From the IMG/VR virus record IMGVR_UViG_3300030447_000318: a stretch of 64,000 nucleotides of DNA. One strand, 5' to 3'. Position 1 is the first letter of the stretch. Each line of letters begins with the position of its first letter. The translations under genes were made by a program, and so were the position numbers. Of the stretch, positions 13,316 to 42,719 are shown piece after piece. The notes below the pieces were generated by a model. It worked only from the letters and a program-made list of their open reading frames with translations, was not told the DNA's origin and made no database searches. This stretch comes from a virus.

Positions 13316-13864
13316 CTATCGAAGATAATTCTTTAAGAAATATTCAAAATATTCTCTGATAAACAGTCCTGAATATTGATTATTTGGCATAAACATAACT
13401 GGAATATTATATTTAAACCAAAAGCTGTGTATTGATGCAATAAATGATTTTCGATTGTACTTCGTATCATAGTTCCCTATTGCTATATCTTCATAAGAAG
13501 CGTTTTCGATTAGCAATACTTTGGTCTTTGGTGCAAGACATAATTCTTTTTCAAATCTATCACGCTCTTTTGTCAGATTACCACTTATCTCTTCAAGACT
13601 TGCTTTTCTCTCAATGACACATGAATTTGTAAAATACAAATCACGAAGTATTCCAAGCTTTTCATTAGCTGGTATCATGAATGAATAATCACCATAGCTT
13701 AAAGCTTTCTTTTTATATTTAATTTCTTTTCTATCAAAATAATCTGTGATGTGGGAATTGACTTTTTCTCTTGTGTCAACAAGGATTACAATGGAAGATA
13801 TTAACTCTTCCATTTCCTTATCTGTGTACTTATATTTGTTAAATATCGTCTTCGTCCTCCTCAA
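13316..13864 (-). CDS. ERCC4/Mus81-type nuclease-like protein
   Basis: The motifs VDTREK...GDY...ERK lie in the order and spacing typical of ERCC4-domain nucleases. Confidence 0.45.
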   Translation of the reverse strand: MRRTKTIFNKYKYTDKEMEELISSIVILVDTREKVNSHITDYFDRKEIKYKKKALSYGDYSFMIPANEKLGILRDLYFTNSCVIERKASLEEISGNLTKERDRFEKELCLAPKTKVLLIENASYEDIAIGNYDTKYNRKSFIASIHSFWFKYNIPVMFMPNNQYSGLFIREYFEYFLKNYLR

Positions 13865-16800
13865 TATCGTTTTTTATTACAAATTTACTCAACCAAAATT
13901 CAAATTTATCGGGTACTTCTTTATAAATTTTCTTACCTGTAACTGGATTTATTTCACCAGTTGGCTCTTTTTTATTCTTCTTTTCAAGGGAAATAATATA
14001 TAAGATTAAACCTTTATTGAACGGGTTACGATTGTATGCACTTGTCCACATTTTGACTGTTCGTGTCTTACCACTATAAATCTCAAATAGAGTAATTGTT
14101 GTAAGATATTTCGTAGAATTAATGTCTGATACATAATATAGTCGTTTGTTAGCTGTTGGCTGAGTATAAGACACATATCCATATAATTCTTGCTGATAAT
14201 TAAAAATATCTAAAATAGAAGTCTCTTTATAATCCACATTCTTTACAATATCTTTTAACAACGATATTGAATCAAAATCCTTCCAGATTTTTTCTGTTTG
14301 TTTTTTACAGTGAGATTTAACAATATCTTTAGGTAATCCCAATTCTTCAAGTTTATCTATCTTGAATTGTTTTTTACCATACACCTTATCAAAATAATCT
14401 GTTTGAGCAAGTAGAGTATTTATTTCACCAAACTCAGAAAAGAAATTCAATTTAATCAATATCTCTAATTGTTTGGAATTAACAGAAGTATTTTTTATAT
14501 CAATAAGCAAATCTATAAAATCGTTGTACTTCTTATCTTTCAAAGTGTACAAATCATCTCCAACATTATCGCCGATATACTTAATAGACGACATTCCTTT
14601 GTATATGGTATTATTCTCTTTATTGTAAGAATATTTTGATGTTGAGTATCTAAATTTAATATCGCTCAATTTGATATTGAAATAATCCAGTTCCTTTTTA
14701 AGCTTATTTGTTCTTACTTGATCATCTGCGTAATTATTGAAACATACACTGTAATATTCAAGTGGATAATTAACCTTTAAATATGCACCATAACACATAT
14801 CAAGAGATGTGGCTGCCGCATGAGCACTACAGAATCCATAACTCATACAGCTCTGAATCATTTTCCAAGTTGTATCAAACCCACCCTCTGAACCAGTATT
14901 GATTATCCATTGTTTTCTGATTCTTTCTTCGAGATTAGCAAAGTCTTCTGGTTTTATTTTCTTTTTAGATATCTTTTTGATTAATCCAATAGACTCAGCA
15001 GGTGTTACACCAAGCCAATCAAAATATTGCATTAAAGACTCTTGGAATAATATATATCCATGTGTATCACTTAAAACTTCGTCCAATTGTTCTGAACCAG
15101 TTGTATAATCTTCTCGATTTAAAAATTGCTCTCTCCATGAGTCAAACGATGGTCTGATAGCTGCCGTTAAGTGAGCACCATCTTCAAATGAGGACACTTT
15201 ATATCTTTTTGCTTGTTGCGATCCATTGTCGCTATCCACCTGATTAAGAGTACAGGTTATTCCATTCTTAAATAAATCCCATATTCTCTTATCATCTTTG
15301 ATAGATTTTAACAACTCATTCGCTGTAATAATCGGTTTTCCAATCTCTTTAAACGTTTCATCAATTAATTTCCAAACCTTGACGATTAGATAGTCGTTTT
15401 TAAGCACTTTGTATTCATCAGCTTCAGATGATGTTATTAATACACAAAGATTTTCTCCTAACCTAGTTACACCATATTCGTATAATAAATTCTTATCGCT
15501 TAGAATGTGGGCGCAGGGATGTACTGAACCAGATACGATTGTTCCTACATATTTATTCGCTTCTTCTATGATTGGTTTCCATTTTTCATCATTTTCATAA
15601 GCTTCAAGATTTTTTGCTACATCATTAAATTCATCAAAATCCATACCTTTTGAACGACATACATTTCTAAATGCCTCTGAAATCTGCATAGTTCCAGGTG
15701 CATACATTGGATAACAACCATGCTCTCCCAATAATTCTCTTGAAGCTTTAACGAATGGCTCTTGACTTTTAACATTAAAATCAATATCTGGGAGGGAACG
15801 ATTTTCTAATAATCGAGCAGTGGAAGCAAATCTATCAGGGAAAAGTGGAAGATTAATTTTAAATCTATCAAGCTGAGTCATTCCCAATATTCTATTTATA
15901 TAAAAAGAACCACAGCTACCTCTTCCACCTCTTGTAAGTACTCCACCATATTTATTTACTGCTAAATCAACATTTTTCTCATTAAATAGGAAATAATCTG
16001 CCGTATGAACTTTATCATTTGTATCCTCTATGATTTTCATTTCATATCGAATACCATCTCGGTATCTTTTAAAATCATCATCAGATATATTTTCTTGTTC
16101 TCTAATGACTTTAAATCGCTTGTTGATTTCTTTTTTGAGGAGTTTTACACGCTGATTTGGCGTAAGATTTGGATAGATGGTTGGCATCTTGATAGAATAG
16201 TCAAGTTTGATTTCTTCACAATTATCAAATATCAGAGTATTATTAATCGCATCATCAATTTGTTTATCTGACAAAACATTTTGTTTTTTGAATCTCTCTA
16301 TCATTGTCTCAGCAGTTGGATAATCTAAAATAAAATCATCCTCACTACCATAATTAATATGTTTACCTTTTAATAATTCAAGACGTTCTTGTTTGCCTTC
16401 TTCGTTAATATAATGGGAATCATTGGCGGCAATCAATGATAACCCGTATTCATCCGAAAAATAAATAGCTTTTTTGTTTATCTCTATCTGAATGGGATCA
16501 AGATGAGTTTGGACTTCAAGCATTACATTATTGCCAAAATGTTTAAATAATGGCTTAAATATTTTTTCAATTGAATCCTCATCTCTCAAAAGACCTGCTA
16601 CGCAGGCAGTTGTAATATACACATCATCCCTATCCAAAGCAAGTAAATCCTTCATAAAAAATCTTGGTTTATAATAAAATCCATTGATATTCGCCATACT
16701 TGAAACATAATTCATCTTTTTTCTTGCTTCATCAGTTTTTGGAATTACAATAATATGGTAATTCCTTTTATCTTTCTCAGAAGCGTCTGGTACAATATAT

Positions 16801-17010
16801 CCTTCAATTCCTGCTATACACTTAATACCGTACTTATTACAAAGAGTCTTTGCCTCAAATATATCGCCAAACGAGCCGTGGTTTGTCGTATAATAACTTG
16901 TATGACCATATTCAAGTGCTTTCAAAATATATTCTTCTTGCTTGGTGTTTGTATCTGGCGAAAAAATATTAGAGACATGATCATGTTTATGATAATTGTT
17001 ATATCGCATA
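13839..17010 (-). CDS. dnaE: DNA polymerase III alpha-type (DnaE-like) replicative polymerase with N-terminal PHP domain
   Basis: N-terminal PHP motif (YHKHDHVSNIFSPDTN...HTSYYTTNHGSF). Pol III alpha palm motif GRGSCGSFYINRILGMT. Size about 1050 aa. Probable start is MRYNNYH (RBS aggagaatcaat), not the longest-ORF start. Acidic C-terminus EEDEDDI. Confidence 0.8.
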
Positions 17011-17673
17011 TTGATTCTCCTCTGATATAAATCCAAACTTCCATCCCTTGTGTGTCTTTTTTGAATGATTAGCAACTTGTCTTACGCAATTACCAAGTAA
17101 ATCATGTTTTTTAGCAAATTGATTAGCATTGTCAAAATTATAGATATTTCCATCTGGATCAATTCCATAATACGTTCCTTTATCAGCTTTTCTATGTTGA
17201 CAAGTTTTATTGGCTTTTGCTGTGTTTTCACTTTTAGTTATCCATTGGCAATTACTAGGTTCATAATTGCCATTCTCATCAATTCTATCTATAGTTAAAC
17301 CATCTTTATATTCATTATTAATTGCCCATAGATAAAAATTTTCATATCCATTTTCCCCAAGCCATTCTTCGCATAATACAACTCCTTTGCCACCGTAATT
17401 ATGGAATTCATGCATATTAGGGTTATAACATCTATATTTCATATTGGCATATACAGAATATAATTTTTCATTTTTATTTTCATATTTTCTTAATTGACAA
17501 ATACAAGATGTATGTTTTCCATGATGTATTTCATAGGCTTTACATGTTTTAATATTTCCACATATAATACATTCTGTCGTTGCCATTTCTACACCATCTT
17601 CATTTTTAAATACTTTAAGGAGTTTTCTGATTCCATATATTTTACCAATCTCATAAGTATATTTTTTATTCAT
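16999..17673 (-). CDS. HNH homing endonuclease
   Basis: Cys cluster CIICGN...HHGKHTSCIC plus the HNH_3-like GLTIDRIDENGNYEPSNCQWITKSEN. Inserted between the polymerase and exonuclease genes and overlaps the polymerase start. Confidence 0.6.
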   Translation of the reverse strand: MNKKYTYEIGKIYGIRKLLKVFKNEDGVEMATTECIICGNIKTCKAYEIHHGKHTSCICQLRKYENKNEKLYSVYANMKYRCYNPNMHEFHNYGGKGVVLCEEWLGENGYENFYLWAINNEYKDGLTIDRIDENGNYEPSNCQWITKSENTAKANKTCQHRKADKGTYYGIDPDGNIYNFDNANQFAKKHDLLGNCVRQVANHSKKTHKGWKFGFISEENQYAI

Positions 17674-21066: not shown

Positions 21067-22626
21067 TTATTTTATCTCTCCATGCTTAAATCTCGCTTGC
21101 GCAACTTCCCTAAAGATACAATGGTCGCCGTCGTAACGTAATAGATATCCAATTCCATTATCGCTTGAATTAGCACCACTACGACATTTCTCTATAAATA
21201 TTGCTCTCCAAACCGCATTCGGATCTGGTTTATATTCCTCTTCTATCCATTTATCATTAACCCTTTTAAGTCTAAATGGACGACAATAATATTTACTCTT
21301 CTCATCTAATTCTTCTGCATATACAGTCCTCATTAAGAATAAATTCTCTAATATCTCTTTGATCTGCTTAGAATTGCTCAATGCTGAAGCGTCTAAGAAT
21401 AACTTACCCTTCATGTATTCAGCTAACTGAACGGAGGCAAGCATTATAAGATTATATTTTTTTGCAAGTTTATCTAACTCACGACTATCTCTTACAAGTG
21501 CCATATCTTGTCTTGTTGTTGAAAAGTCACCTTCTTGGATTTTAAATGTGTCATATAATACCGTGTCATATCCATATCTTAAAACATTCTCACGAATTTT
21601 TTTCTTAATAACTCTCATATCAGCATCATTAATAGAAATAAATTTGACTCTTCCTTTATAATTATCTCTCCAAAATTTCTGAACATCAGATAATTGTTCT
21701 CTACTCTCAGTATTGATATCACCAGCAGCCATTTTTTTCTTAGTAAGTTTAAAATATCTATTACGCTTACCCAATAACCAAACCATGAATTTAATCTTAA
21801 ATTTCTTTATGCTCTCTTCATTGGATATAATAAGAATCTTTCTGTCATAATGCAGAAGTGCCATAAGAACTGTAATCCACCATGTAGATTTACCCGCACT
21901 AGAGAAACCACCCATCATAGTAAGTGTCCCTTCAAGTAACCCCATTATCTGTCGTGATAGAAAAGGAAAACAATTCATTTCCTCCCCATTTTTATCATAT
22001 CCTGCTATATCAAATGGAACACCATTCTCTTCACCATCTTTACAAGATTCAATAAATTCATCATCAAAATCTATTTCTTCCTCTTCAAGAATCTTGCTAC
22101 TATATCCTGTACCATAACTGGATATACGAGCTTCATACCAATCTGTGACTTCTTCAGCAGTCATTTTTCTAAATAGTTTTAATGGGATTACCTTTTTATC
22201 TCCTACAGTTATTTCTTGCAGAAGATTAAAACCATCTTTATACATGTTCATCATAATATTCTCTCTGTAAAGAATATCTATGTATGTGTCAAAATTCTGA
22301 GTATTGATAATATCAATTTGGTGCTGAATTGCTTCCCAACCACCTTTATCCTCAAATTTTTCAATAACTTCTTGATTCGTATTAGACAGAATGGTAATTT
22401 CATCAAGAGAGTAAAAGCCTTTCTTTCGTAAATTTTTCAATAACGAAAAATAAAAAAGACCATCTGCTGTAACAAAATCTTTCTGCTCAAATGTTGTATC
22501 ATCAAGTAGAAGCATATCTTTGAAAAAACAACTAATGACATTACCCTCTATTTCAATCCTACCTTTTAATAATTGAGCAGGATACTTTTCTTTCACGCCT
22601 GTAATAAATTCACTTATGTCAATCAC
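21067..22626 (-). CDS. dnaB: DnaB-family replicative DNA helicase
   Basis: Walker A GGFSSAGKSTW, a Walker B region and an N-terminal helical DnaB-like domain. Size 519 aa. Confidence 0.7.
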   Translation of the reverse strand: MIDISEFITGVKEKYPAQLLKGRIEIEGNVISCFFKDMLLLDDTTFEQKDFVTADGLFYFSLLKNLRKKGFYSLDEITILSNTNQEVIEKFEDKGGWEAIQHQIDIINTQNFDTYIDILYRENIMMNMYKDGFNLLQEITVGDKKVIPLKLFRKMTAEEVTDWYEARISSYGTGYSSKILEEEEIDFDDEFIESCKDGEENGVPFDIAGYDKNGEEMNCFPFLSRQIMGLLEGTLTMMGGFSSAGKSTWWITVLMALLHYDRKILIISNEESIKKFKIKFMVWLLGKRNRYFKLTKKKMAAGDINTESREQLSDVQKFWRDNYKGRVKFISINDADMRVIKKKIRENVLRYGYDTVLYDTFKIQEGDFSTTRQDMALVRDSRELDKLAKKYNLIMLASVQLAEYMKGKLFLDASALSNSKQIKEILENLFLMRTVYAEELDEKSKYYCRPFRLKRVNDKWIEEEYKPDPNAVWRAIFIEKCRSGANSSDNGIGYLLRYDGDHCIFREVAQARFKHGEIK

Positions 22627-30057: not shown

Positions 30058-30087
30058 TTTCTTATTCTCCTTTCTTACTGTAAATAA

Positions 30088-30160
30088 CAGGGCTAATCGG
30101 ATTCGAACCGATGAATGCAGAGATCAAAACCCTGTGCCTTACCACTTGGCGATAGCCCTA
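30088..30160 (-). tRNA. tRNA-Gln (anticodon UUG)
   Basis: Minus-strand sequence AGGGCTATCGCCAAGTGGTAAGGCACAGGGTTTTGATCTCTGCATTCATCGGTTCGAATCCGATTAGCCCTG folds as a cloverleaf. It has a 7-bp acceptor stem, U8, A14, GG in the D-loop, anticodon loop TTTTGAT (anticodon TTG) and a GGTTCGAATCC T-arm. No encoded CCA. Confidence 0.8.
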
Positions 30161-34463: not shown

Positions 34464-34801
34464 GCTGACACCCCATTAAGTTGATTTTTAATTCTAATAA
34501 CTTCATCTAAAGCACTTGTTAGAGAAGCTTCGTGCTTTTCTCTATACAACTCAACTGCTTTAACATAATTACCAACTCTGATACATTCTTCTACTGTTGG
34601 TTCAAGAATTTCTCTCTTTATACCTCTACAAGAAGCTGCGTATTGTCTTAGCGCAGCTAAATCATCACATGGAATACCCTTTTTATGGTTTACATTTGAA
34701 ATCAAACTTAACTCATAATTGGTAATAATGCCTCCATTTACCAGTTCAAAATACAAAATCTTATTCATAACTCTCATCCTTTCTATATATTTACATTGCA
34801 A
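34460..34801 (-). CDS. hypothetical protein
   Basis: 113-aa ORF. Confidence 0.4.
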   Translation of the reverse strand: MQCKYIERMRVMNKILYFELVNGGIITNYELSLISNVNHKKGIPCDDLAALRQYAASCRGIKREILEPTVEECIRVGNYVKAVELYREKHEASLTSALDEVIRIKNQLNGVSA

Positions 34802-36170
34802 TAAAGTTATCTACATCATTCTTCATCACTAAGTAATTCTCTTTTTGGTCTTTGATGTATGTATTGTTTTTATTAAAGTAATCGACGAACCAATCTTTTA
34901 ACTCAATTTCTTTTTCAAAACTGTAAGCTACAAGAGATAATAAAGATAGTCTATTTTCTTTTTCTAATAGTTTTGAGCTGTTGTCTACTTCGACAGTATA
35001 ATCGTCTAGCATTGAACTAAACAATTCCATTCTATCTTCATCTACTTCGACAGAAGTAACGTCTGTTACAAACTGTTCTATTTCTTCATTTGTATATTCT
35101 CTACTTGGTTTTGGAATTTCCTCTTGAAAGTATTCTTTCATTAACTTTTCAAGCATATCTAATTTTGCAAAGACAACCTTTTTATCTTTGCTATTCTTAT
35201 CCTTATCGTATGTATTAAAAGTTTTATCCTCATATTCTGAGAATGTTTTGTTATGTAAGTTATTCTTAAATTCTAAAAGGAAGTCATTAAATCTCGCAGC
35301 TTCTATTTTATAATCCAAGAATTTATGGAACAAACTAAAGAAAAGGAAACTATTCTTTACATTGAATAATTTACCTGTTTCTTCATCAACAATATTTGCC
35401 AACATGTCTAATTCGTTGTTCAATGTATCAAACTCTTCTTTACTTGCATTTTCATTTAAGTGTTTGAATAAAGATTTCCCTCTTGTATATTCTTCAGCAT
35501 GAAACATTATTGTTATAGCTTCATAGACAACTCTATTAAGCTTTCCGTTTTTCAATGCTGCTTCTCCATAATCTCCACAGTTTTTAAAGAAATTATTATT
35601 AATTGTATCTTTTATATATGTAGCAATATTTGACATTGGAAGAATACTCTTTTCTTCTGCGTTCATACTTGTTTGTCTATTGTATCTTGCCATATGATAT
35701 GCTATTTCTTCGTCTGTACAATCTAAATGTTTAACTACATTGATTGGATAACTGTCGAAAGCATCCTGCAATTCTTCGGGTAAATCTTTAAACCATTTAC
35801 CTCTTAAATCGTATTCAACTACTTTCATTTCTCCGTTTATACACTGTTGATAATACACAAATGGCATTTCTAAGCTCTTACTTATTCTAAAAGCACCATT
35901 TCTGTACTCTTCAAGTGCAGTCAATCTCTGCAGTCCATCAATTAGCCACAAAATAAAATCTGTTTTATTTAAGATTTGCTCACAAATTTTAAGTGAATCT
36001 AAATCTTCTCCCTTTATAATAGTAGAGACTAGACCACTTTTTGCAGTATTTTGCCAACGGTCAGCATGTCTCTGTAAAGGATGATTTTTATTTAACTGTC
36101 CTCTCTTAAACATTTTTAATAAAACTTTAACCATGTACGTATCTGTTTTTGTCTTGTCTCTACCAAGCAT
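34791..36170 (-). CDS. DUF262 (ParB/Srx-fold, GmrS-like N-terminal domain) protein
   Basis: Hallmark DGQQR-type motif present as IDGLQRLTAL. Size 459 aa. Confidence 0.5.
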   Translation of the reverse strand: MLGRDKTKTDTYMVKVLLKMFKRGQLNKNHPLQRHADRWQNTAKSGLVSTIIKGEDLDSLKICEQILNKTDFILWLIDGLQRLTALEEYRNGAFRISKSLEMPFVYYQQCINGEMKVVEYDLRGKWFKDLPEELQDAFDSYPINVVKHLDCTDEEIAYHMARYNRQTSMNAEEKSILPMSNIATYIKDTINNNFFKNCGDYGEAALKNGKLNRVVYEAITIMFHAEEYTRGKSLFKHLNENASKEEFDTLNNELDMLANIVDEETGKLFNVKNSFLFFSLFHKFLDYKIEAARFNDFLLEFKNNLHNKTFSEYEDKTFNTYDKDKNSKDKKVVFAKLDMLEKLMKEYFQEEIPKPSREYTNEEIEQFVTDVTSVEVDEDRMELFSSMLDDYTVEVDNSSKLLEKENRLSLLSLVAYSFEKEIELKDWFVDYFNKNNTYIKDQKENYLVMKNDVDNFIAM

Positions 36171-36224: not shown

Positions 36225-36884
36225 TTATGTAAATAAAATAGAAATATTTCTATAAGCTTTTAATCCTTCAATTGAATCTAAAAGTTCTTTTCTATCTATC
36301 TTTAATATTCTCTCAATTTCACTGTATGTATAACCTCGTAACAGCAATACTGCCACCTTCTTTTGTTTGTCAGACAAATGTTCTAAATATTCATCCAGCT
36401 TTTCGCTTGCTTTTCCAAAGCACTGTTTGTGGACATCGAAGTCAGATTTAAGTCCACTGAGATAATTCTGAACCTTCTTAGTAGGATTCTCCAAAGATAT
36501 GTTCTTAACAAAAACATCATTGCCTTCATCATCTTTCATAACTACACTTCTCTTTTTTCTGTTTCTATCTCTTATGTATGTAGAATATAATCTCTTCTTT
36601 AATGAAGAAACTAGGAATGGATGAAACTGACATATCTTTTCGTTATAATTTAAAAGACTATCTAAGAATACAACTTGTGCCAAGCTATACAAGTCATCAT
36701 AATCCTTTTGGCTTATTCCACCAATCTTAATGATGATTGGATAACAAGTTTGTTTTAGCTTCTGCATATTATTGTCACAATACTGGTGCACAATTTTCAT
36801 TTGCTCACCAGTTAAGTTAGAATATTTTTTACTTTCCATTAAATCAAAACCTCCTTTACTTATCACTATTCGCTTTTTGTTCAC
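36225..36884 (-). CDS. sigma-factor-like transcription regulator (region-4 HTH)
   Basis: C-terminal LLLRGYTYSEIERILKIDRKELLDSIEGLK resembles sigma-70 region 4 or LuxR-type HTH. Confidence 0.45.
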   Translation of the reverse strand: MNKKRIVISKGGFDLMESKKYSNLTGEQMKIVHQYCDNNMQKLKQTCYPIIIKIGGISQKDYDDLYSLAQVVFLDSLLNYNEKICQFHPFLVSSLKKRLYSTYIRDRNRKKRSVVMKDDEGNDVFVKNISLENPTKKVQNYLSGLKSDFDVHKQCFGKASEKLDEYLEHLSDKQKKVAVLLLRGYTYSEIERILKIDRKELLDSIEGLKAYRNISILFT

Positions 36885-37128
36885 TCAACATTATTGTTCT
36901 TTATCCATTCCCAAAGAATTTGAGAGACTAAAGCATTTCGTGTATTTTTCATCTACAACTTAACCATATTTTAATAAAATATCCTCTTTTATGAACAATA
37001 TATCCTCAATACTCTATATAATATATCATTTTCTATATTATATGTCAATATGTTTTATATATATTTCTATATATTTTGTGTTGACTAATATATTTTATAT
37101 GTTACAATATAAATATGGAGGTGACATT

Positions 37129-37326
37129 ATGTTTTCATACAAACCATTGTTAAAATTACTCATAGAAAGGGATATGACCAAAACTCAACTTCGTGAAGCC
37201 ACTGGAATGAGTATGAATACCCTTGCTAAAATAAGCAAAAACGAATATATTTCAATGGCTACCCTTGATAACATCTGTTCTTATTTACATTGTAATATTG
37301 AAGATGTAATTGAATTTATTGAATAA
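37129..37326 (+). CDS. XRE-family HTH transcriptional regulator
   Basis: HTH TKTQLREATGMSMNTLAKISKNE. The RBS ggaggtgacatt overlaps a GTGACAT operator half-site. Confidence 0.55.
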   Translation: MFSYKPLLKLLIERDMTKTQLREATGMSMNTLAKISKNEYISMATLDNICSYLHCNIEDVIEFIE

Positions 37327-37334
37327 TTTGTATC

Positions 37335-37352
37335 ATGTCACATAAGTGACAT
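37335..37352. promoter_or_regulatory. perfect palindromic operator ATGTCAC-ATAA-GTGACAT
   Basis: A 7-4-7 inverted repeat. The half-site GTGACAT recurs at 37121 and 37368, overlapping both RBSs. Confidence 0.5.
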
Positions 37353-37375
37353 TCACTATCAAAAGAGGTGACATT

Positions 37376-37561
37376 ATGGCAACAAATAAACGAGCTTTTA
37401 CAATGAGAATGCAAGCAGAGAACTTTGAAAAAATAAAAATCATCGCCGAATGTAACAAGTGCTCAATTGCAATGCAAATAGAATATTTAATTGAGAATTG
37501 CATTGAGCAATATGAAAAAGAGCATGGTGAAATTAAATTTTTCCAAGACCTTTCTGAGTAA
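37376..37561 (+). CDS. ribbon-helix-helix (CopG/Arc-like) regulator
   Basis: N-terminal beta-strand then helix pattern (KRAFTMRMQAENFEKIKIIAE). Preceded by a perfect palindrome. Confidence 0.45.
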   Translation: MATNKRAFTMRMQAENFEKIKIIAECNKCSIAMQIEYLIENCIEQYEKEHGEIKFFQDLSE

Positions 37562-37602
37562 CCCATATTAACATTGCGTTAAAACTAATTCCACTTTTAT
37601 CT

Positions 37603-37648
37603 GCCTACCTGTTGTATCTGATTCTTTAATTCAACAGGTAGGCGAATT
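37603..37648. terminator. bidirectional rho-independent terminator
   Basis: 12-bp perfect stem gcctacctgttg / caacaggtaggc between convergent genes. Confidence 0.55.
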
Positions 37649-37672
37649 GTTAATTGTTGTTTCTCCATTTAA

Positions 37673-37858
37673 TCACATCCTTGCCCAATCTTGTTTGTCA
37701 TTTACATTCTGAAAATGTGCAGCAGAAATACATCTCTGTTTCCAGTCCAAATAACCAGCACATCCATCATGACAACCAACATATCTGATAAGACATTTAT
37801 AACATGGTGAAATTTCTTTTAAAGGATTAATTTTAATACTCTTTCCTTTATTGTTCAT
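37673..37858 (-). CDS. Cys-rich small protein
   Basis: 61 aa with CYKCLIRYVGCHDGCAGY. Confidence 0.4.
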   Translation of the reverse strand: MNNKGKSIKINPLKEISPCYKCLIRYVGCHDGCAGYLDWKQRCISAAHFQNVNDKQDWARM

Positions 37859-37965
37859 AATATATTCTCCTTTTTACCTAACAAAATGACATTTCTTTTA
37901 TATATTCTCCAAAATTTGTGTATTATATAAGGAATACCCCATACAGGCATTCCTTATACAGTGAA

Positions 37966-38283
37966 TTATTCTATTTTCTCTTCTTCATTGTTCCGTGGTA
38001 CAAGTAGAAAAGTGCTAACCTTCCCTTCTCTTTGTATCTTTTTAATATTTTGTTTAGTAGAGTAAGCATCGATTGTTTGAACCAATTCGTCACATCGTCT
38101 TGCCACTGTCTCTGCCTGTTTAATCATATCTATACAAGTCTCTTTGAATATGGGTAAGAAACTTTCTACACAGTTTTCTTCTAAGTTGCAAATAGAAACA
38201 GGAATTTTATTACCCTTAGATTCTTTTATTAACTTTGTAGCTTCTTCTTCTGTTATTTCGATTATTGCAGCTTTAAAGCACAT
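37966..38283 (-). CDS. hypothetical protein translationally coupled to MazF-like toxin
   Basis: 105-aa ORF. Its ATG overlaps the mazF-like stop. Confidence 0.45.
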   Translation of the reverse strand: MCFKAAIIEITEEEATKLIKESKGNKIPVSICNLEENCVESFLPIFKETCIDMIKQAETVARRCDELVQTIDAYSTKQNIKKIQREGKVSTFLLVPRNNEEEKIE

Positions 38284-38682
38284 TTATTCACTCACTCCTT
38301 CTATGTTGCATATATAAGCATTATAAATTTGTTGCTTATATTTTTTATCTGTTATTTTTCCTCTATAATCTAAAATTCTACTCTTATCTACTTGACGAAC
38401 AGCTTCGCCTAAAACAATACTATCTTCTGTTAAAGCAGATATAAATTCGCTTTTAAGGAGGACATGTGTTGGTTGTTTTAAACTTTTCTTTTGAGAAGTC
38501 AATGGCAATACGATTGTTGTCGGACTATAATAATTTCCAATATTATTCTGAATAACCACAGCAGGTCGAATGCCTCCTTGTTCACTTCCAATTGGGACAT
38601 CGCCAAAATCAACAGTAACAATATCATATGCCTTAATTTTTATTTCTCGTTTACATTTATGTTCTTTTTTACTCTCAACCAT
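38284..38682 (-). CDS. mazF: MazF/PemK-family endoribonuclease toxin
   Basis: VDFGDVPIGSEQGGIRPAVVIQNNIGNYYSPTTIVLPLTSQ...QPTHV aligns closely with MazF/EndoA. Confidence 0.75.
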   Translation of the reverse strand: MVESKKEHKCKREIKIKAYDIVTVDFGDVPIGSEQGGIRPAVVIQNNIGNYYSPTTIVLPLTSQKKSLKQPTHVLLKSEFISALTEDSIVLGEAVRQVDKSRILDYRGKITDKKYKQQIYNAYICNIEGVSE

Positions 38683-38700
38683 TTATTATTCGTCCTCCTT

Positions 38701-38811
38701 TCTTTAGTTTTTTATGTACTATTTTGTGTCTTTCTTACTCTCTAACAATATATTAATAATATTACCAACAACTTCTCTTTGAGAATAAGACAATAGGTAT
38801 AACTTATGAGT
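38701..38811 (-). CDS. candidate micro-antitoxin ORF upstream of mazF-like gene
   Basis: 36-aa ORF (MTEEEITHKLYLLSYSQREVVGNIINILLESKKDTK) with SD-like gaaggtga. Its stop lies about 15 nt before the mazF RBS. Confidence 0.25.
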
Positions 38812-39029
38812 AATTTCTTCTTCCGTCATAGCGTCACCTTCTTCTATATTTTTATTAAATGTATTTTTAACTACATTCATTTGTATTTGTAGCTACATAA
38901 TAACACATAATTGTTGTAGTGTCAAGTACATTTTTAGCAAAAAATGACTATATTTTGTATTTTTAACTACATTGGTTTGACATCAATAATAAACGATGAT
39001 ATAATCAAAAAACATAAGGAGGCGAATTT

Positions 39030-39815
39030 ATGCTGATTAGCGAAAAATTTGAGCTTATTAGAAAAGCGAACAATTTAACAAAAATGAAGTTCTGTGACAA
39101 AGTAGGAATGTCTCGATCTCATTACGACAGTTTACTTGCTGAAAAAAACAGCGATAAAATTATCAATAAGACTACCAATATATCTATAATCAATAGCATA
39201 TGTTATTTATTTAATGTGGATAAACAATGGTTGACTAATGATGAAAGCAATATTGATTTTTTTGATAAAAAATTTAATCAACAAATTGTTGATAATTATA
39301 TGTTGCTGTCAGAAGCAAGCAAAAATATTGTTGATAATCTTATTGATGGTTTATTGGAATTAAATAACAATCAACCGTCAACTACTCAACAGCCAGTAAT
39401 CAGATTAGCTGTATATGACCAACCAGTATGTGCTGGTAATGGTAACTTCATTACGGACGCAACAAAAACATTTAAGGATTTCCCTAATGCCCCGTCTGAT
39501 GCTGATTTCGCAGTTAGAGTTCAAGGCGATTCCATGACACCTGCTTACAACGATGGTGATTTAGTGTTTGTTAAATCTACCGACACATTGAATAACGGAG
39601 ATGACGGTATTTTTATCGTAGATGGCGATATAACGCTAAAAAGATTTATGGGTAATGAATTAATCCCATTAAATCCAAAATACTCTAAAATAAGCCAAAA
39701 AGCTATAATTCAAGGCAAAGTGGTTGGCATCGCAGAACATCACTCTGATTTAGAGGCTGAAGTTTTAGATATTGTAAACCAAGACAAGCCGCAAAACTTA
39801 AAAAAATCTATTTAA
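39030..39815 (+). CDS. cI/LexA-like repressor (N-terminal HTH plus C-terminal S24 peptidase)
   Basis: N-terminal HTH. C-terminal VRVQGDSMTPAYNDGDLVFV...LKRF (Ser/Lys dyad). Confidence 0.7.
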   Translation: MLISEKFELIRKANNLTKMKFCDKVGMSRSHYDSLLAEKNSDKIINKTTNISIINSICYLFNVDKQWLTNDESNIDFFDKKFNQQIVDNYMLLSEASKNIVDNLIDGLLELNNNQPSTTQQPVIRLAVYDQPVCAGNGNFITDATKTFKDFPNAPSDADFAVRVQGDSMTPAYNDGDLVFVKSTDTLNNGDDGIFIVDGDITLKRFMGNELIPLNPKYSKISQKAIIQGKVVGIAEHHSDLEAEVLDIVNQDKPQNLKKSI

Positions 39816-39820
39816 CAAAA

Positions 39821-39858
39821 AAGGCAAGAAAAGAACTTTAAGCTCTCTCTTGCCTTTT
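39821..39858 (+). terminator. rho-independent terminator after repressor gene
   Basis: Hairpin ggcaaga...tcttgcc followed by a T-run. Confidence 0.45.
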
Positions 39859-40187
39859 CTCTTACTTAACCGAAGTATAAGTAATAAATATTGCTTGATC
39901 TATCAGCTTGTAAGTTTATCAATAACAATTGTTCTTTGCACTTGTAAACTCCCTTAATATGCTTTCCAATCAAGCTTTTAACATAATGTACCTGCATACC
40001 GCTTGCCTCCCTTTCCATCATATTCCCTAAGACAATGGACTGTTTAGCACCAGAAAAGAGGTACGGAAAAATATTAACATAAAATGACATAGTTCAACAA
40101 GAAGCAACATTTTCCATTTTTTGTCCTATACATGTTATAGGATTTATGTTATAATACAAACAAAAATATTAAATTAGGAGCGATAAG

Positions 40188-40286
40188 ATGACACAGATGC
40201 AAAAAGATATTATTAGGTTATATTTACAGCTAGATGCCAAAGACGAGAAAGAGTTTCTCATGTGGCTATTTAGTTTAAGTAAATAA
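40188..40286 (+). CDS. 32-aa small peptide gene with own promoter and terminator
   Basis: Promoter-like ttgtcc..N17..gttataat. RBS ttaggagcgataag. ATG ORF MTQMQKDIIRLYLQLDAKDEKEFLMWLFSLSK. Downstream hairpin atagcctt/aaggctat plus T-run. Confidence 0.35.
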   Translation: MTQMQKDIIRLYLQLDAKDEKEFLMWLFSLSK

Positions 40287-40336
40287 TAACCAATATTCTG
40301 TATATAATAGCCTTATGTATTTTACAAAGGCTATTT

Positions 40337-40600
40337 TTATTTTATTGATTCTCTTAACTCATTCGCTTTCTCTTTGTCAATAACACTATAGTTCAACAAA
40401 GTGTTTATTGCCAAATTCGCTTGTCTAGTGATTTTCGCTTTTATGTCATATTTTGCTCCAGTAAGCAATGTGTCCTGAATAATTTCCACATCAGTTGGCT
40501 TTTCTTCTCTGAGAGCTTCTGTATATACTCGCTTTATAATCTCTAATTCTTTTTCAAGTTCTTTTTCACCAACCAAATATTCAACTGTAACTTTAATCAT
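40337..40600 (-). CDS. hypothetical protein
   Basis: 87-aa ORF. Confidence 0.45.
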   Translation of the reverse strand: MIKVTVEYLVGEKELEKELEIIKRVYTEALREEKPTDVEIIQDTLLTGAKYDIKAKITRQANLAINTLLNYSVIDKEKANELRESIK

Positions 40601-40624: not shown

Positions 40625-41737
40625 TTACTTTCGCCCATACATATCTGCATTTACTTCAGCTTGCCAATAGTTATGGCTAGTAGTATAAGAATTAAACAAC
40701 ATAGCAATCAAATAGGCTTTAATGTTTTGAATTCTAGTTGGATTTTCCTTTAACGCCACTATCACATACTCTATATGGTCGTATTTCAACTTCCAGAATC
40801 TTTGTTGCACAATTGTACTTGGATATTTCACTCCAGAAATCATATAAGTTGTGCTATCAACAGTTACAACTTCTGTCATGAGTTCAACTATCTCATCAAT
40901 GATTTCTTTGTCGTTAGGGTAAGAGATTATTAAATCGCTATAACCTATATTTTGTTTTATGATTTGACATAAACGAATATAATCTTGTGCCGCATACTTT
41001 GGTTGTCTTTCTCTATCTATCAATCCACCTCTTATGTTATTAATATTATTATAGTTAGGTTGATAGATTGATTGTTTAATACTTAATTGTTTAGTATTTA
41101 ATTCTTTAGTATTTAATTGTATGCGGTTTTCCATATCAGGAAATCCCCTATCTTGGTTATCCATATCTGGGAAATCAGGATATGGATGAGATACCAGTAA
41201 ATCTGCACCTTTCAAAGGACAACTTTCTTTTTCGCTTATGTAATCTTCAATCGAAATATTGTCAGCCACATTTAAATTTTTAGTATCATCATAATGTATA
41301 TCATTTGTATTAAAATCACCATCTTTTTCTTCGATTTGTTTAACATTAGTATTATTATTTTTAACACTATTATTAACATTATCTTCATTAGTATTTTCGG
41401 AATTAGTCTTATTATCATTACAATTAGTAGCCTTTTGAGGTTCGTCATAAAGTGTATAATCCACATCTAAAATTTTGCCTTTATCATCTCTAATTGTAGT
41501 TCTAATTAAATAACCCAATTCTTCTAATTTTTTTAATCCACTTGTAATGGTTGTTCTACCATCTGGTAAAATTTGATTTAATCCATTAATAGAAAAATCC
41601 CACTCAGATGGCAAACTTAACATTGTTATAAGCAAACCTCTTGATTTAATATCTAAATTCATATCTCTTAATATTGAGTTGTTAACAATTGTGAAATTAT
41701 TTTTTAGTTCTTTCTTTAGTATGCCCATAACAAACAT
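40625..41737 (-). CDS. RepA_N-like replication initiator / replisome organiser with low-complexity N-rich linker
   Basis: N-terminal winged-helix pattern (NNSILRDMNLDIKSRGLLITMLSLPSEWDF...LKKLEELGYLIRT). Asn-rich linker. C-terminal helical domain. Confidence 0.45.
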   Translation of the reverse strand: MFVMGILKKELKNNFTIVNNSILRDMNLDIKSRGLLITMLSLPSEWDFSINGLNQILPDGRTTITSGLKKLEELGYLIRTTIRDDKGKILDVDYTLYDEPQKATNCNDNKTNSENTNEDNVNNSVKNNNTNVKQIEEKDGDFNTNDIHYDDTKNLNVADNISIEDYISEKESCPLKGADLLVSHPYPDFPDMDNQDRGFPDMENRIQLNTKELNTKQLSIKQSIYQPNYNNINNIRGGLIDRERQPKYAAQDYIRLCQIIKQNIGYSDLIISYPNDKEIIDEIVELMTEVVTVDSTTYMISGVKYPSTIVQQRFWKLKYDHIEYVIVALKENPTRIQNIKAYLIAMLFNSYTTSHNYWQAEVNADMYGRK

Positions 41738-41759
41738 TTCCTTTCATATTTTATAATTT

Positions 41760-42719
41760 TTATACTATCCTGAGTTTATTCGCCATATTTATAGCTGTTT
41801 GATACTTATCTACATCATCAGTAAGATACCTAATAATTTTTCCTAAATCATCAGATTTTAAGGAGATAACAGGCATATTCTTGACTATTTCATCACCTTT
41901 ACCAGCCAATACATTGTGGATAAACTCACCATGGTCATCAATCAACTGTCTATTTTTCTCTTCTGTTAAACCGATGTAATTCATAGTGATTTGCAAATCT
42001 GTATGATTAAACAGTTTCTGCAATGATAACAAACAATCGGGGTCAAATGGATGTGTCTTATGAATCCAGTAACCAAAACTCTTACGAAGAGAGTGAGTGC
42101 TTACAGCGTATTGTATATTCGCTGCTTTAACTGCTTTGTTTAACTTCTTTCTGTAAACCTCTGTCTGCTGTTTTACAACATCGTTATATTCGACTACATA
42201 ATAAAGATAATCTCCAAGAGATAAGTATCTTTGCTGTTTATTAAAGTCTTTGATTATTTTCTCTTTTCTATCTTCTGATATAGTCTTATTTAACGCTTTA
42301 CACCAAAGTTCTATATCGTTTTTACTGTATATATCCAAGCCTTTTCTCTTTATCCAGTTCGTTTTAGGAATATACTCGAAGATATATTCGTTGTAATGTT
42401 TCTTTATATCAACATCTACATTCTCCAAGTATTTATCTAAGGCTTCAAATACAGTATTACTTATAGGGAGATTAGTAACTTTTCCTGTTTTTTGTTCTTC
42501 AATTGTATTTATTTCTCTTTTTCTGCTTCCGTTTTCGTAGTATATATCAGACCATTTCATCATTACTGTATCTCCAATTCTTCTACCAAGCAGGAGTTCT
42601 AACATTGTAATGAGATAACCATCCCATTCATGGTTATTTTCAAACCATTCAACTACATTTCTAATGTCTTCCATTTTCCAAAACGGATATACTTCAGTTT
42701 TCTCTTTTCTTTTTGTCAT
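41760..42719 (-). CDS. int: tyrosine site-specific integrase
   Basis: Catalytic-region motifs HSLRKSFG and ...ITMNYI (Tyr). Size 319 aa. Confidence 0.7.
   Translation of the reverse strand: MTKRKEKTEVYPFWKMEDIRNVVEWFENNHEWDGYLITMLELLLGRRIGDTVMMKWSDIYYENGSRKREINTIEEQKTGKVTNLPISNTVFEALDKYLENVDVDIKKHYNEYIFEYIPKTNWIKRKGLDIYSKNDIELWCKALNKTISEDRKEKIIKDFNKQQRYLSLGDYLYYVVEYNDVVKQQTEVYRKKLNKAVKAANIQYAVSTHSLRKSFGYWIHKTHPFDPDCLLSLQKLFNHTDLQITMNYIGLTEEKNRQLIDDHGEFIHNVLAGKGDEIVKNMPVISLKSDDLGKIIRYLTDDVDKYQTAINMANKLRIV

Follow-up and report, generated by a model that had tools for sequence, protein, structure and literature searches.

A toxin-first MazF cassette with a conserved globular partner, a candidate antitoxin, apparently gated by a cI-like repressor in a large clostridial-type phage

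The virus record IMGVR_UViG_3300030447_000318 of IMG/VR was analysed as one stretch of 64,000 nucleotides (nt; hereafter the window), which has a GC content of about 30% and carries nearly all of its genes on the minus strand. The phage is a large one of clostridial type, and it harbours a small minus-strand operon built around a MazF/PemK endoribonuclease toxin of 132 amino acids (aa; 38284..38682). Four open reading frames (ORFs) lie behind the operon promoter: a 36-aa micro-ORF (38719..38829; MTEEEITHKLYLLSYSQREVVGNIINILLESKKDTK, beginning MTEEEITH), MazF, a protein of 105 aa (37966..38283) from an unnamed family of 90-105-aa proteins, which is considered here as a candidate antitoxin encoded downstream of its toxin, and a 61-aa Cys-rich ORF (37673..37858), the last gene of the transcription unit. 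A divergent promoter/operator region separates the operon from the gene for a cI/LexA-like repressor of 261 aa, which is transcribed from the plus strand (39030..39815). An earlier note on this DNA had recognised the toxin and the 105-aa ORF, both of which were confirmed, and had remarked on the lack of an obvious antitoxin, in agreement with our finding no canonical MazE-type or PemI-like gene at the locus.

The toxin matches PF02452 with a score of 89.7 bits (E=1.7e-25; curated cutoff 23.1 bits) and PHROG 1936, 'MazF-like growth inhibitor' (E=6.4e-22), and the closest solved structures are the MazF proteins of S. aureus and B. subtilis (4mzm, 1ne8, 4mdx; E ~5e-19). The GSEQGG(I/V)RP loop (GSEQGGIRP in the window) and the P-L-T-S-Q strand align in register with the solved proteins. 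Both catalytic residues are present, with Arg39 and Thr62 aligned to Arg25 and Thr48 of B. subtilis MazF, and the two positions are conserved across the clade (Arg in 11/11 members, Thr or Ser in 11/11). MazF evolves under purifying selection, with a ratio of nonsynonymous to synonymous polymorphism (pN/pS) of 0-0.17. Judged by these features, it is an intact, bona fide PemK/MazF protein with predicted RNase activity. An antisense promoter-like site was also noticed within the coding region (38502-38531, plus strand; ATGGCA-18-TATAAT, 10/12), and the same site occurs in an IMG/VR relative of the window, L008, which comes from a contig of 132 kb; a transcript from it running over the start of MazF is conceivable, and the match may equally reflect chance.

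The TAA stop codon of MazF (38286-38284) directly abuts the ATG of the 105-aa ORF (38283-38281) in the same frame; contrary to what the earlier note had supposed, the two codons do not overlap. The 105-aa ORF is preceded by a strong Shine-Dalgarno (SD) sequence of its own (GAAGGAG), and both genes belong to one operon behind one promoter. The gene context of relative loci, designated L001-L041, was read starting either from MazF homologues of 50-67% identity (L003, L004, L005, L006/7, L018/19, L020) or from homologues of the partner of 30-90% identity (L001, L002, L008-11, L012, L013/14, L015, L021-23, L024-41), and the linkage of the two genes was assessed in about 35 loci from at least nine lineages. 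In all of these loci, the partner begins -1 to +23 nt from the MazF stop and has its own SD sequence. It lies downstream of MazF in every locus read, the reverse of the antitoxin-first order that is canonical for toxin-antitoxin (TA) systems of type II. Intact MazF was present in 17 of 18 additional IMG/VR loci. The remaining locus, L041, is the only one read without it: ahead of an intact partner ORF, just a frameshifted C-terminal part of MazF survives (2290-2776), and the promoter and regulator have also been lost. No MazF of this clade lacking the partner was seen among the loci read. The linkage is strict and tight; far from being an orphan, the 105-aa protein accompanies this MazF clade as a conserved partner.

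Pairwise distances of MazF and of the partner are correlated (r=0.845, Mantel p=4e-4). Divergence is faster in the partner, whose mean identity is 42% versus 55% for MazF. Faster evolution together with co-varying distances is a pattern typical of antitoxins. The partner is under purifying selection (pN/pS 0.11-0.28). MazF is basic in all 11 MazF-partner pairs, with isoelectric points (pI) of 7.7-9.8, while the partner is acidic or neutral in eight of the 11 and the median pI of its family is 5.6. Upstream of MazF, the neighbouring gene varies and may encode a helix-turn-helix (HTH) protein of the XRE type with 70-143 aa, an HTH-S24 repressor (the window), an RHH_5 protein of the ribbon-helix-helix (RHH) type (L021-23) or an integrase; in some loci a regulator is absent. 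Promoter and operators lie directly ahead of MazF in L006, L012, L018 and most IMG/VR loci. In L015 and L020, MazF follows the end of an integrase gene at a distance of 36 nt. The partner is the only constant neighbour of this MazF clade, and because no other neighbour is constant, its candidacy as the antitoxin is supported. The earlier suggestion of a reverse-order antitoxin fits this conserved downstream position; antitoxin function itself stays a proposal.

Neither the 105-aa protein nor its profile matched Pfam, PHROG, NCBIfam, PADLOC or the sequences of the Protein Data Bank (PDB). An exhaustive HMMER scan of 1.84 billion representative proteins returned 19 relatives, a word-indexed search with the 105-aa protein found near-identical copies only, and a profile search brought the family to 53 clusters at 90% identity, none of them named or carrying a Pfam domain. 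Homologues were absent from GenBank phages and PLSDB plasmids, and a search of 185,579 species genomes with the A1 patterns gave no close relative of the window partner; more distant family members occur on megabase-size contigs. The proteins encoded downstream of other phage MazFs, in Heliusvirales and Enterocloster phages, were considered as members of the same family and were discarded (hhalign probability <1%).

An AlphaFold2 model of the partner, built from an alignment of 21 sequences, predicts a compact beta-alpha-beta-beta-alpha-beta-beta-beta domain with a mean predicted local distance difference test score (pLDDT) of 84.5 and a predicted template modelling score of 0.73. Compared with solved antitoxins, the predicted fold had no match and appears to be neither AbrB, RHH, Phd/YefM nor HTH. 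A DNA-binding domain that might serve operon autoregulation could not be detected in it. Comparison of the partner and of the micro-ORF with MazE and PemI, of either the AbrB-SpoVT or the RHH type, likewise disclosed no similarity of sequence or fold, which answers in the negative a possibility that the earlier note had raised for both proteins.

Two further sources of an antitoxin were considered and rejected. An RNA antitoxin of type III is contradicted by the lack of tandem repeats and of any Rfam match within 37400-39100. The convergent RHH gene at 37346-37561 was examined as a MazE-like antitoxin, and its slot proved variable even in close relatives; in other lineages, no RHH gene is conserved downstream of MazF and the partner.

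The micro-ORF is the first gene of the operon. Its full reading frame spans 38719..38880 with an internal ATG at 38829, and because homology with L008 begins at the SD sequence before that ATG, translation was taken to start there, giving a product of 36 aa. The micro-ORF of 36-58 aa that had earlier been placed at 38701-38880 is thus real and has 36 codons, with the frame running from 38719 rather than 38701 and the start at 38829. It is under purifying selection (pN/pS 0.24) and has no match in Pfam, PHROG, NCBIfam, PADLOC or PDB sequences. L003 and L004 have positional analogues of 43-44 aa and L005 has part of one; L006, L012, L015, L018, L020 and most IMG/VR loci have none. Because it is missing from most lineages, the micro-ORF cannot be the general antitoxin of these cassettes, as the earlier note had thought it might be.

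A different role for the micro-ORF is suggested by its best match within the window proteome, residues 84-110 of the adjacent repressor (39279-39359, plus strand). The aligned stretches are EEITHKLYLLSYSQREVVGNIINILLE in the micro-ORF and QQIVDNYMLLSEASKNIVDNLIDGLLE in the repressor; the score of 46 compares with 37 for the next-best match (z=6.5), and none of 2000 shuffled sequences reached it. The micro-ORFs of L003 and L004 resemble a conserved tail (..DDPxxKRLLSYAKKLN) at the C terminus of short HTH regulators found in L018-type loci (z 3.5-4.7). Neither the micro-ORFs nor the regulator tails resemble B. subtilis MazE (sequence verified against 4ME7_E; p>0.3). These similarities suggest that the 36-aa ORF is akin to a free-standing copy of a repressor helix, which would make it a SinI- or AimX-like anti-repressor or the bearer of a shared protein-binding helix, and thus possibly either a small anti-repressor or a MazF-binding helix. 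Size and position fit a small anti-repressor; the resemblance to a repressor helix is significant in one lineage and weaker in L003/4.

Between the micro-ORF and MazF lies a leader of 36 nt (38683..38718, minus strand) with the sequence UACAU at 38718-38714 and the MazF SD sequence GGAGG at 38698-38694. The closest MazFs that have been characterised cleave at UACAU. This sequence is found 5-25 nt upstream of the MazF SD sequence in five of seven independent lineages, namely the window, L003/4/5 (at about 3965, 3967 and 95, respectively), L006 (about 3000), L018 (about 1480) and L020 (about 1975), and not in L012 or L015. The leader UACAU could be a site of self-cleavage or of autoregulation, or simply a conserved leader sequence.

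The regulator of the operon appears to be the divergently transcribed repressor, which matches PF00717 (E=1.4e-18), PHROG 4 (E=9.5e-29) and TIGR00498 lexA (E=1.1e-11). An N-terminal HTH domain is followed by the helix at 84-110 and an S24 peptidase domain with the hallmarks Cys-Ala-Gly at 134-136, GDSM (Ser) at 166 and LKRF (Lys) at 203. With its HTH, Ala-Gly site and Ser/Lys dyad, the protein belongs by sequence to the cI/LexA-like S24 class, and self-cleavage is predicted. The divergent promoter/operator region (38858..39005, both strands) falls in the interval of about 180 bp between the repressor gene and the operon. The repressor promoter, P(+), consists of TTGACA at 38977-82 and TATAAT at 39000-05 (plus strand, 12/12), and the MazF operon promoter, P(-), of TTGACA at 38925-20 and, after 17 nt, TG-TATTAT at 38902-38897 (minus strand, 11/12). 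These back-to-back promoters are the two best sigma-70-like matches within 36800-40400. TGTA-N8-TACAT dyads start at 38860, 38882, 38915 and 38956, four of the five in the entire window, and three of the four overlap the MazF promoter, at its -35, its -10 and the +20 region. Because of this arrangement, the operon should remain repressed in the lysogen and be turned on when the repressor is inactivated, and the S24 hallmarks of the repressor lead one to expect de-repression after DNA damage.

Comparison with L008 indicates which protein acts at these operators. The two phages are 93-100% identical from the SD sequence of the micro-ORF onward, but they differ in the promoter, in the operators (of the TGTTAT-N4-ATAACA type in L008) and in the first ~95 residues of the repressor, comprising the HTH; the rest of the repressor is ~95% identical. 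The replaced block (38846-39320 in the window, 1970-2420 in L008) includes both divergent promoters and has flanks of 93-100% identity, and its right-hand breakpoint falls exactly at the SD sequence of the 36-aa ORF. The difference amounts to a classic hetero-immunity swap between variants of one large phage. Because the HTH and the operators were exchanged together, the swap identifies the cI-like protein as the factor that binds the operators and controls the MazF promoter. Between lineages, too, operators vary with the repressor and not with MazF or the partner.

These findings are best accommodated by a toxin-first, repressor-gated MazF module in which a new globular partner acts as the antitoxin, a reading that we hold with slightly more belief than doubt. 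The repressor would bind the TGTA-N8-TACAT dyads and thereby shut the strong minus-strand promoter (38925-38897). Inactivation of the repressor, for which self-cleavage at the Ala-Gly site under stimulation by RecA is the likeliest route, would yield a single transcript encoding the micro-ORF of 36 aa, MazF, its 105-aa partner and the 61-aa Cys-rich protein. MazF would act as a sequence-specific endoribonuclease on single-stranded RNA, and the partner, made from the ORF that abuts the toxin gene, would attach to MazF and occlude its RNA groove. Control of transcription would pass from the partner, which seems to have no DNA-binding domain, to a separate and exchangeable repressor, as in three-component TA systems. 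Binding and neutralisation of MazF by the partner, SOS responsiveness and the biological role of the module are what we infer from this arrangement. Type II TA systems offer precedents, as partner swapping, toxin-first gene order and several unrelated antitoxin families for MazF have been described, and a third protein can take over the DNA binding (PMC2701414, PMC3141249, PMC10440598). The partner probably represents an antitoxin of a new kind.

Several observations weigh against this proposal. The model of the partner is only moderately robust, as pLDDT values for the five models were 84.5, 81.9, 64.6, 61.0 and 59.8 and only two were confident. As modelled, the partner lacks both a disordered tail that could wrap around the toxin and a DNA-binding domain, and it is unlike known antitoxin folds. 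In the L003/4/5 lineage it is basic, with a pI of 9.0. The helix common to micro-ORFs and repressors could be the true MazF-binding element. Finally, tight repression by a cI-type protein fits uneasily with a classical addiction role: addiction modules are not usually kept repressed in the way expected here for the lysogen, and leaky expression is possible.

The proposed module shares features with several known systems and is identical to none. Compared with MazEF and EndoAI-EndoA of S. aureus and B. subtilis (4ME7, 4MZM), the toxin is clearly homologous, with ~45% identity over the core and the same GSEQGG(V/I)RP loop and catalytic Arg and Thr, but an RHH or AbrB-type MazE is missing upstream, and the candidate antitoxin lies downstream, is globular and appears to be devoid of a DNA-binding domain. 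In higBA, mqsRA and hicAB, the toxin gene likewise precedes the gene of a folded antitoxin in one tightly coupled operon; those antitoxins carry an HTH or zinc-HTH and autoregulate, unlike the window partner as far as can be detected, and those toxins are RelE-like or HicA rather than MazF. The yafNO, dinJ-yafQ and tisB loci of E. coli are SOS-regulated toxin modules under the control of LexA. They resemble the window operon in that a toxin operon is placed under a self-cleaving S24 repressor and should rise after DNA damage, and differ from it in the toxin-antitoxin pair and in that the window repressor is phage-encoded, adjacent to the operon and available in hetero-immune variants. In the omega-epsilon-zeta and paaR-paaA-parE systems (PMC3141249), DNA binding and neutralisation are divided between two polypeptides, as they would be here; the regulator of the MazF cassettes is divergent and exchangeable (XRE HTH, HTH-S24, RHH_5 or none), that of the window being of the self-cleaving cI/LexA-like type.

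The alternative that survives best, and which we still consider improbable, is that the neutraliser is a short amphipathic helix, supplied either as a free micro-ORF (the window, L003/4/5) or as the C-terminal tail of a regulator, and that the protein of ~100 aa is a third component such as a sensor, adaptor or stabiliser. The tail motif SDDPxxxRLLxYxxKL is found in the divergent HTH regulators of L006/L018-type cassettes, and a tail of this type is identical at 26 of 26 positions between L006 and L027, though their HTH domains differ; the resemblances of the micro-ORFs to the window repressor and to L018-type tails point the same way. Precedent comes from AimX and YosL, small peptides of the phages phi3T and SPbeta, whose MazE-like C-terminal region serves to bind MazF and inactivate it (PMC10769878). 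Peptides of the AimX type, with a length of 29 aa or more, keep the AimC repressor from oligomerising by occupying the position of its second subunit (bioRxiv 10.1101/2025.11.23.689978). The window shares with these systems a very small helical phage protein near a repressor and MazF; it differs in that arbitrium genes are not found nearby, MazE similarity is lacking and MazF is encoded by the phage rather than the host, and any role of the micro-ORF is conjecture. Against a helical neutraliser, L015 and L020 possess neither a micro-ORF nor a divergent regulator, the regulator is an RHH_5 protein in L021-23, and micro-ORFs and tails are unlike B. subtilis MazE. Furthermore, a divergently transcribed antitoxin would lose its stoichiometric coupling to the toxin, and an anti-repressor role would explain the helix similarity equally well.

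It is also rather unlikely that MazF serves as an immediate-early weapon or life-cycle regulator that reshapes host RNA, and phage RNA as well, with the partner tuning its timing or specificity. The operon does occupy a cro-like position directly under a cI-controlled promoter, MazF genes without recognisable antitoxins are common within the replication modules of gut Firmicute phages, and the activity of host MazF steers the lysis-lysogeny decision of phi3T (PMC10769878). Avoidance of the presumed cleavage site by the phage, a possible sign of an unrestrained phage MazF, was ruled out, as UACAU on the phage sense strand is not depleted (109 observed versus 100 expected; rank 856/1024), which speaks only weakly against a phage RNase acting without restraint, the specificity being taken from relatives. 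The same MazF-partner pair also turns up beside integrase genes at the ends of prophages and under small repressors of unrelated kinds, which gives it the look of a portable cassette and not of a gene at the core of the life cycle.

With about the same low likelihood, the phage may have internalised a MazF decision circuit consisting of a small anti-repressor peptide in imitation of the repressor helix, the RNase MazF and a globular inhibitor of MazF that is new, and this circuit would take part in the commitment to lysis or the return to lysogeny. The locus would then be a self-contained counterpart of the interplay between AimX/YosL and MazEF in phi3T rather than a selfish addiction cassette.

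The remaining alternative depends on the lifestyle of the phage. The window encodes a DnaE-like DNA polymerase III alpha subunit (13839-17075), a DnaB-like helicase (21067-22626) and, at 40625-42719, a Rep-like protein with HTH_36 and DUF6017 domains together with a tyrosine recombinase, both directly upstream of the repressor gene. The polymerase is most closely related, at 42-43% identity, to its counterparts in C. botulinum phage c-st and C. difficile phiCD211/phiCDIF1296T, and related big C. difficile phages are described as extrachromosomal, 'plasmidial' phages with addiction genes (PMC5786514). Contigs bearing the same cassette are 78-138 kb in size, and many further family members reside on viral contigs of 107-159 kb. 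A Pfam search for partition genes in ten further upstream ORFs gave no match. A plasmid-like prophage could use the cassette as a classical module for addiction or abortive infection, with low expression in the lysogen and killing of cells upon loss of the episome or superinfection. This account could draw support from the relatives of the polymerase, from the Rep-like protein and the recombinase, and from the TIR/SEFIR and DUF4747 cassettes, each with a repressor of its own, in neighbouring slots of relatives, but it is the least probable account, since dyads on the -35, -10 and +20 of the MazF promoter predict strong repression in the lysogen, no cassette protein has a PADLOC match and the plasmid lifestyle is deduced from distant relatives only. 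This alternative concerns the role of the module and not its mechanism, and is compatible with the mechanism proposed above for the repressor-gated module.

The region that harbours the cassette behaves as a hotspot for accessory genes. In L004 (1-3673), SEFIR/TIR and DUF4747 cassettes, with a divergent HTH gene for each, are located upstream of the MazF cassette, and in L022 (4325-6291) a canonical RelB-like and PemK pair adjoins the RHH_5, MazF and partner cassette. The 61-aa Cys-rich ORF, with a CxxC...C...C...C pattern, is extremely conserved in L001, L002 and L008-10 (pN/pS 0.00-0.07) and is lineage-specific, since no other lineage has it; a family match was not obtained. Beyond the operon end, XRE and RHH genes run convergently toward it, and a terminator was not detected in between. 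The XRE ORF, listed with 111 aa from 36991, probably starts near 37126, which would give a product of ~65 aa as called in L002. A second pair of back-to-back promoters (36885-37130; minus strand 37048-37020, 11/12; plus strand 37081-37108, 10/12) separates the XRE gene from that of a sigma-like factor (36225-36884; TIGR02937, E=1.5e-8). Next comes a 459-aa protein (34791-36170, minus strand) with weak similarity to GmrSD_N/DUF262 (PHROG 2598, E=4.5e-15; PADLOC NsnA, E=8e-12), and proteins of the DUF262/GmrSD_N type are found again slightly downstream of the MazF cassette in L003, L005, L006/7 and L041. A tRNA-Gln (UUG) gene is located within the phage gene array (30087-30160, minus strand).

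The practical impact of these findings is moderate, as partner swapping in TA systems is already a well-documented principle. Because the partner family has no Pfam or NCBIfam model, present annotation shows its loci as a solitary toxin next to a hypothetical protein. If the protein of ~100 aa does neutralise MazF, it would represent a new antitoxin fold and a toxin-first architecture for one of the best studied toxin families, and would account for many of the phage and prophage MazF genes that look like orphans to annotation pipelines. A MazF operon wired to a self-cleaving cI-like repressor offers a testable case of an RNase toxin tied to the induction switch of a phage, and the small ORF that resembles a repressor helix provides a likewise testable link to that switch.

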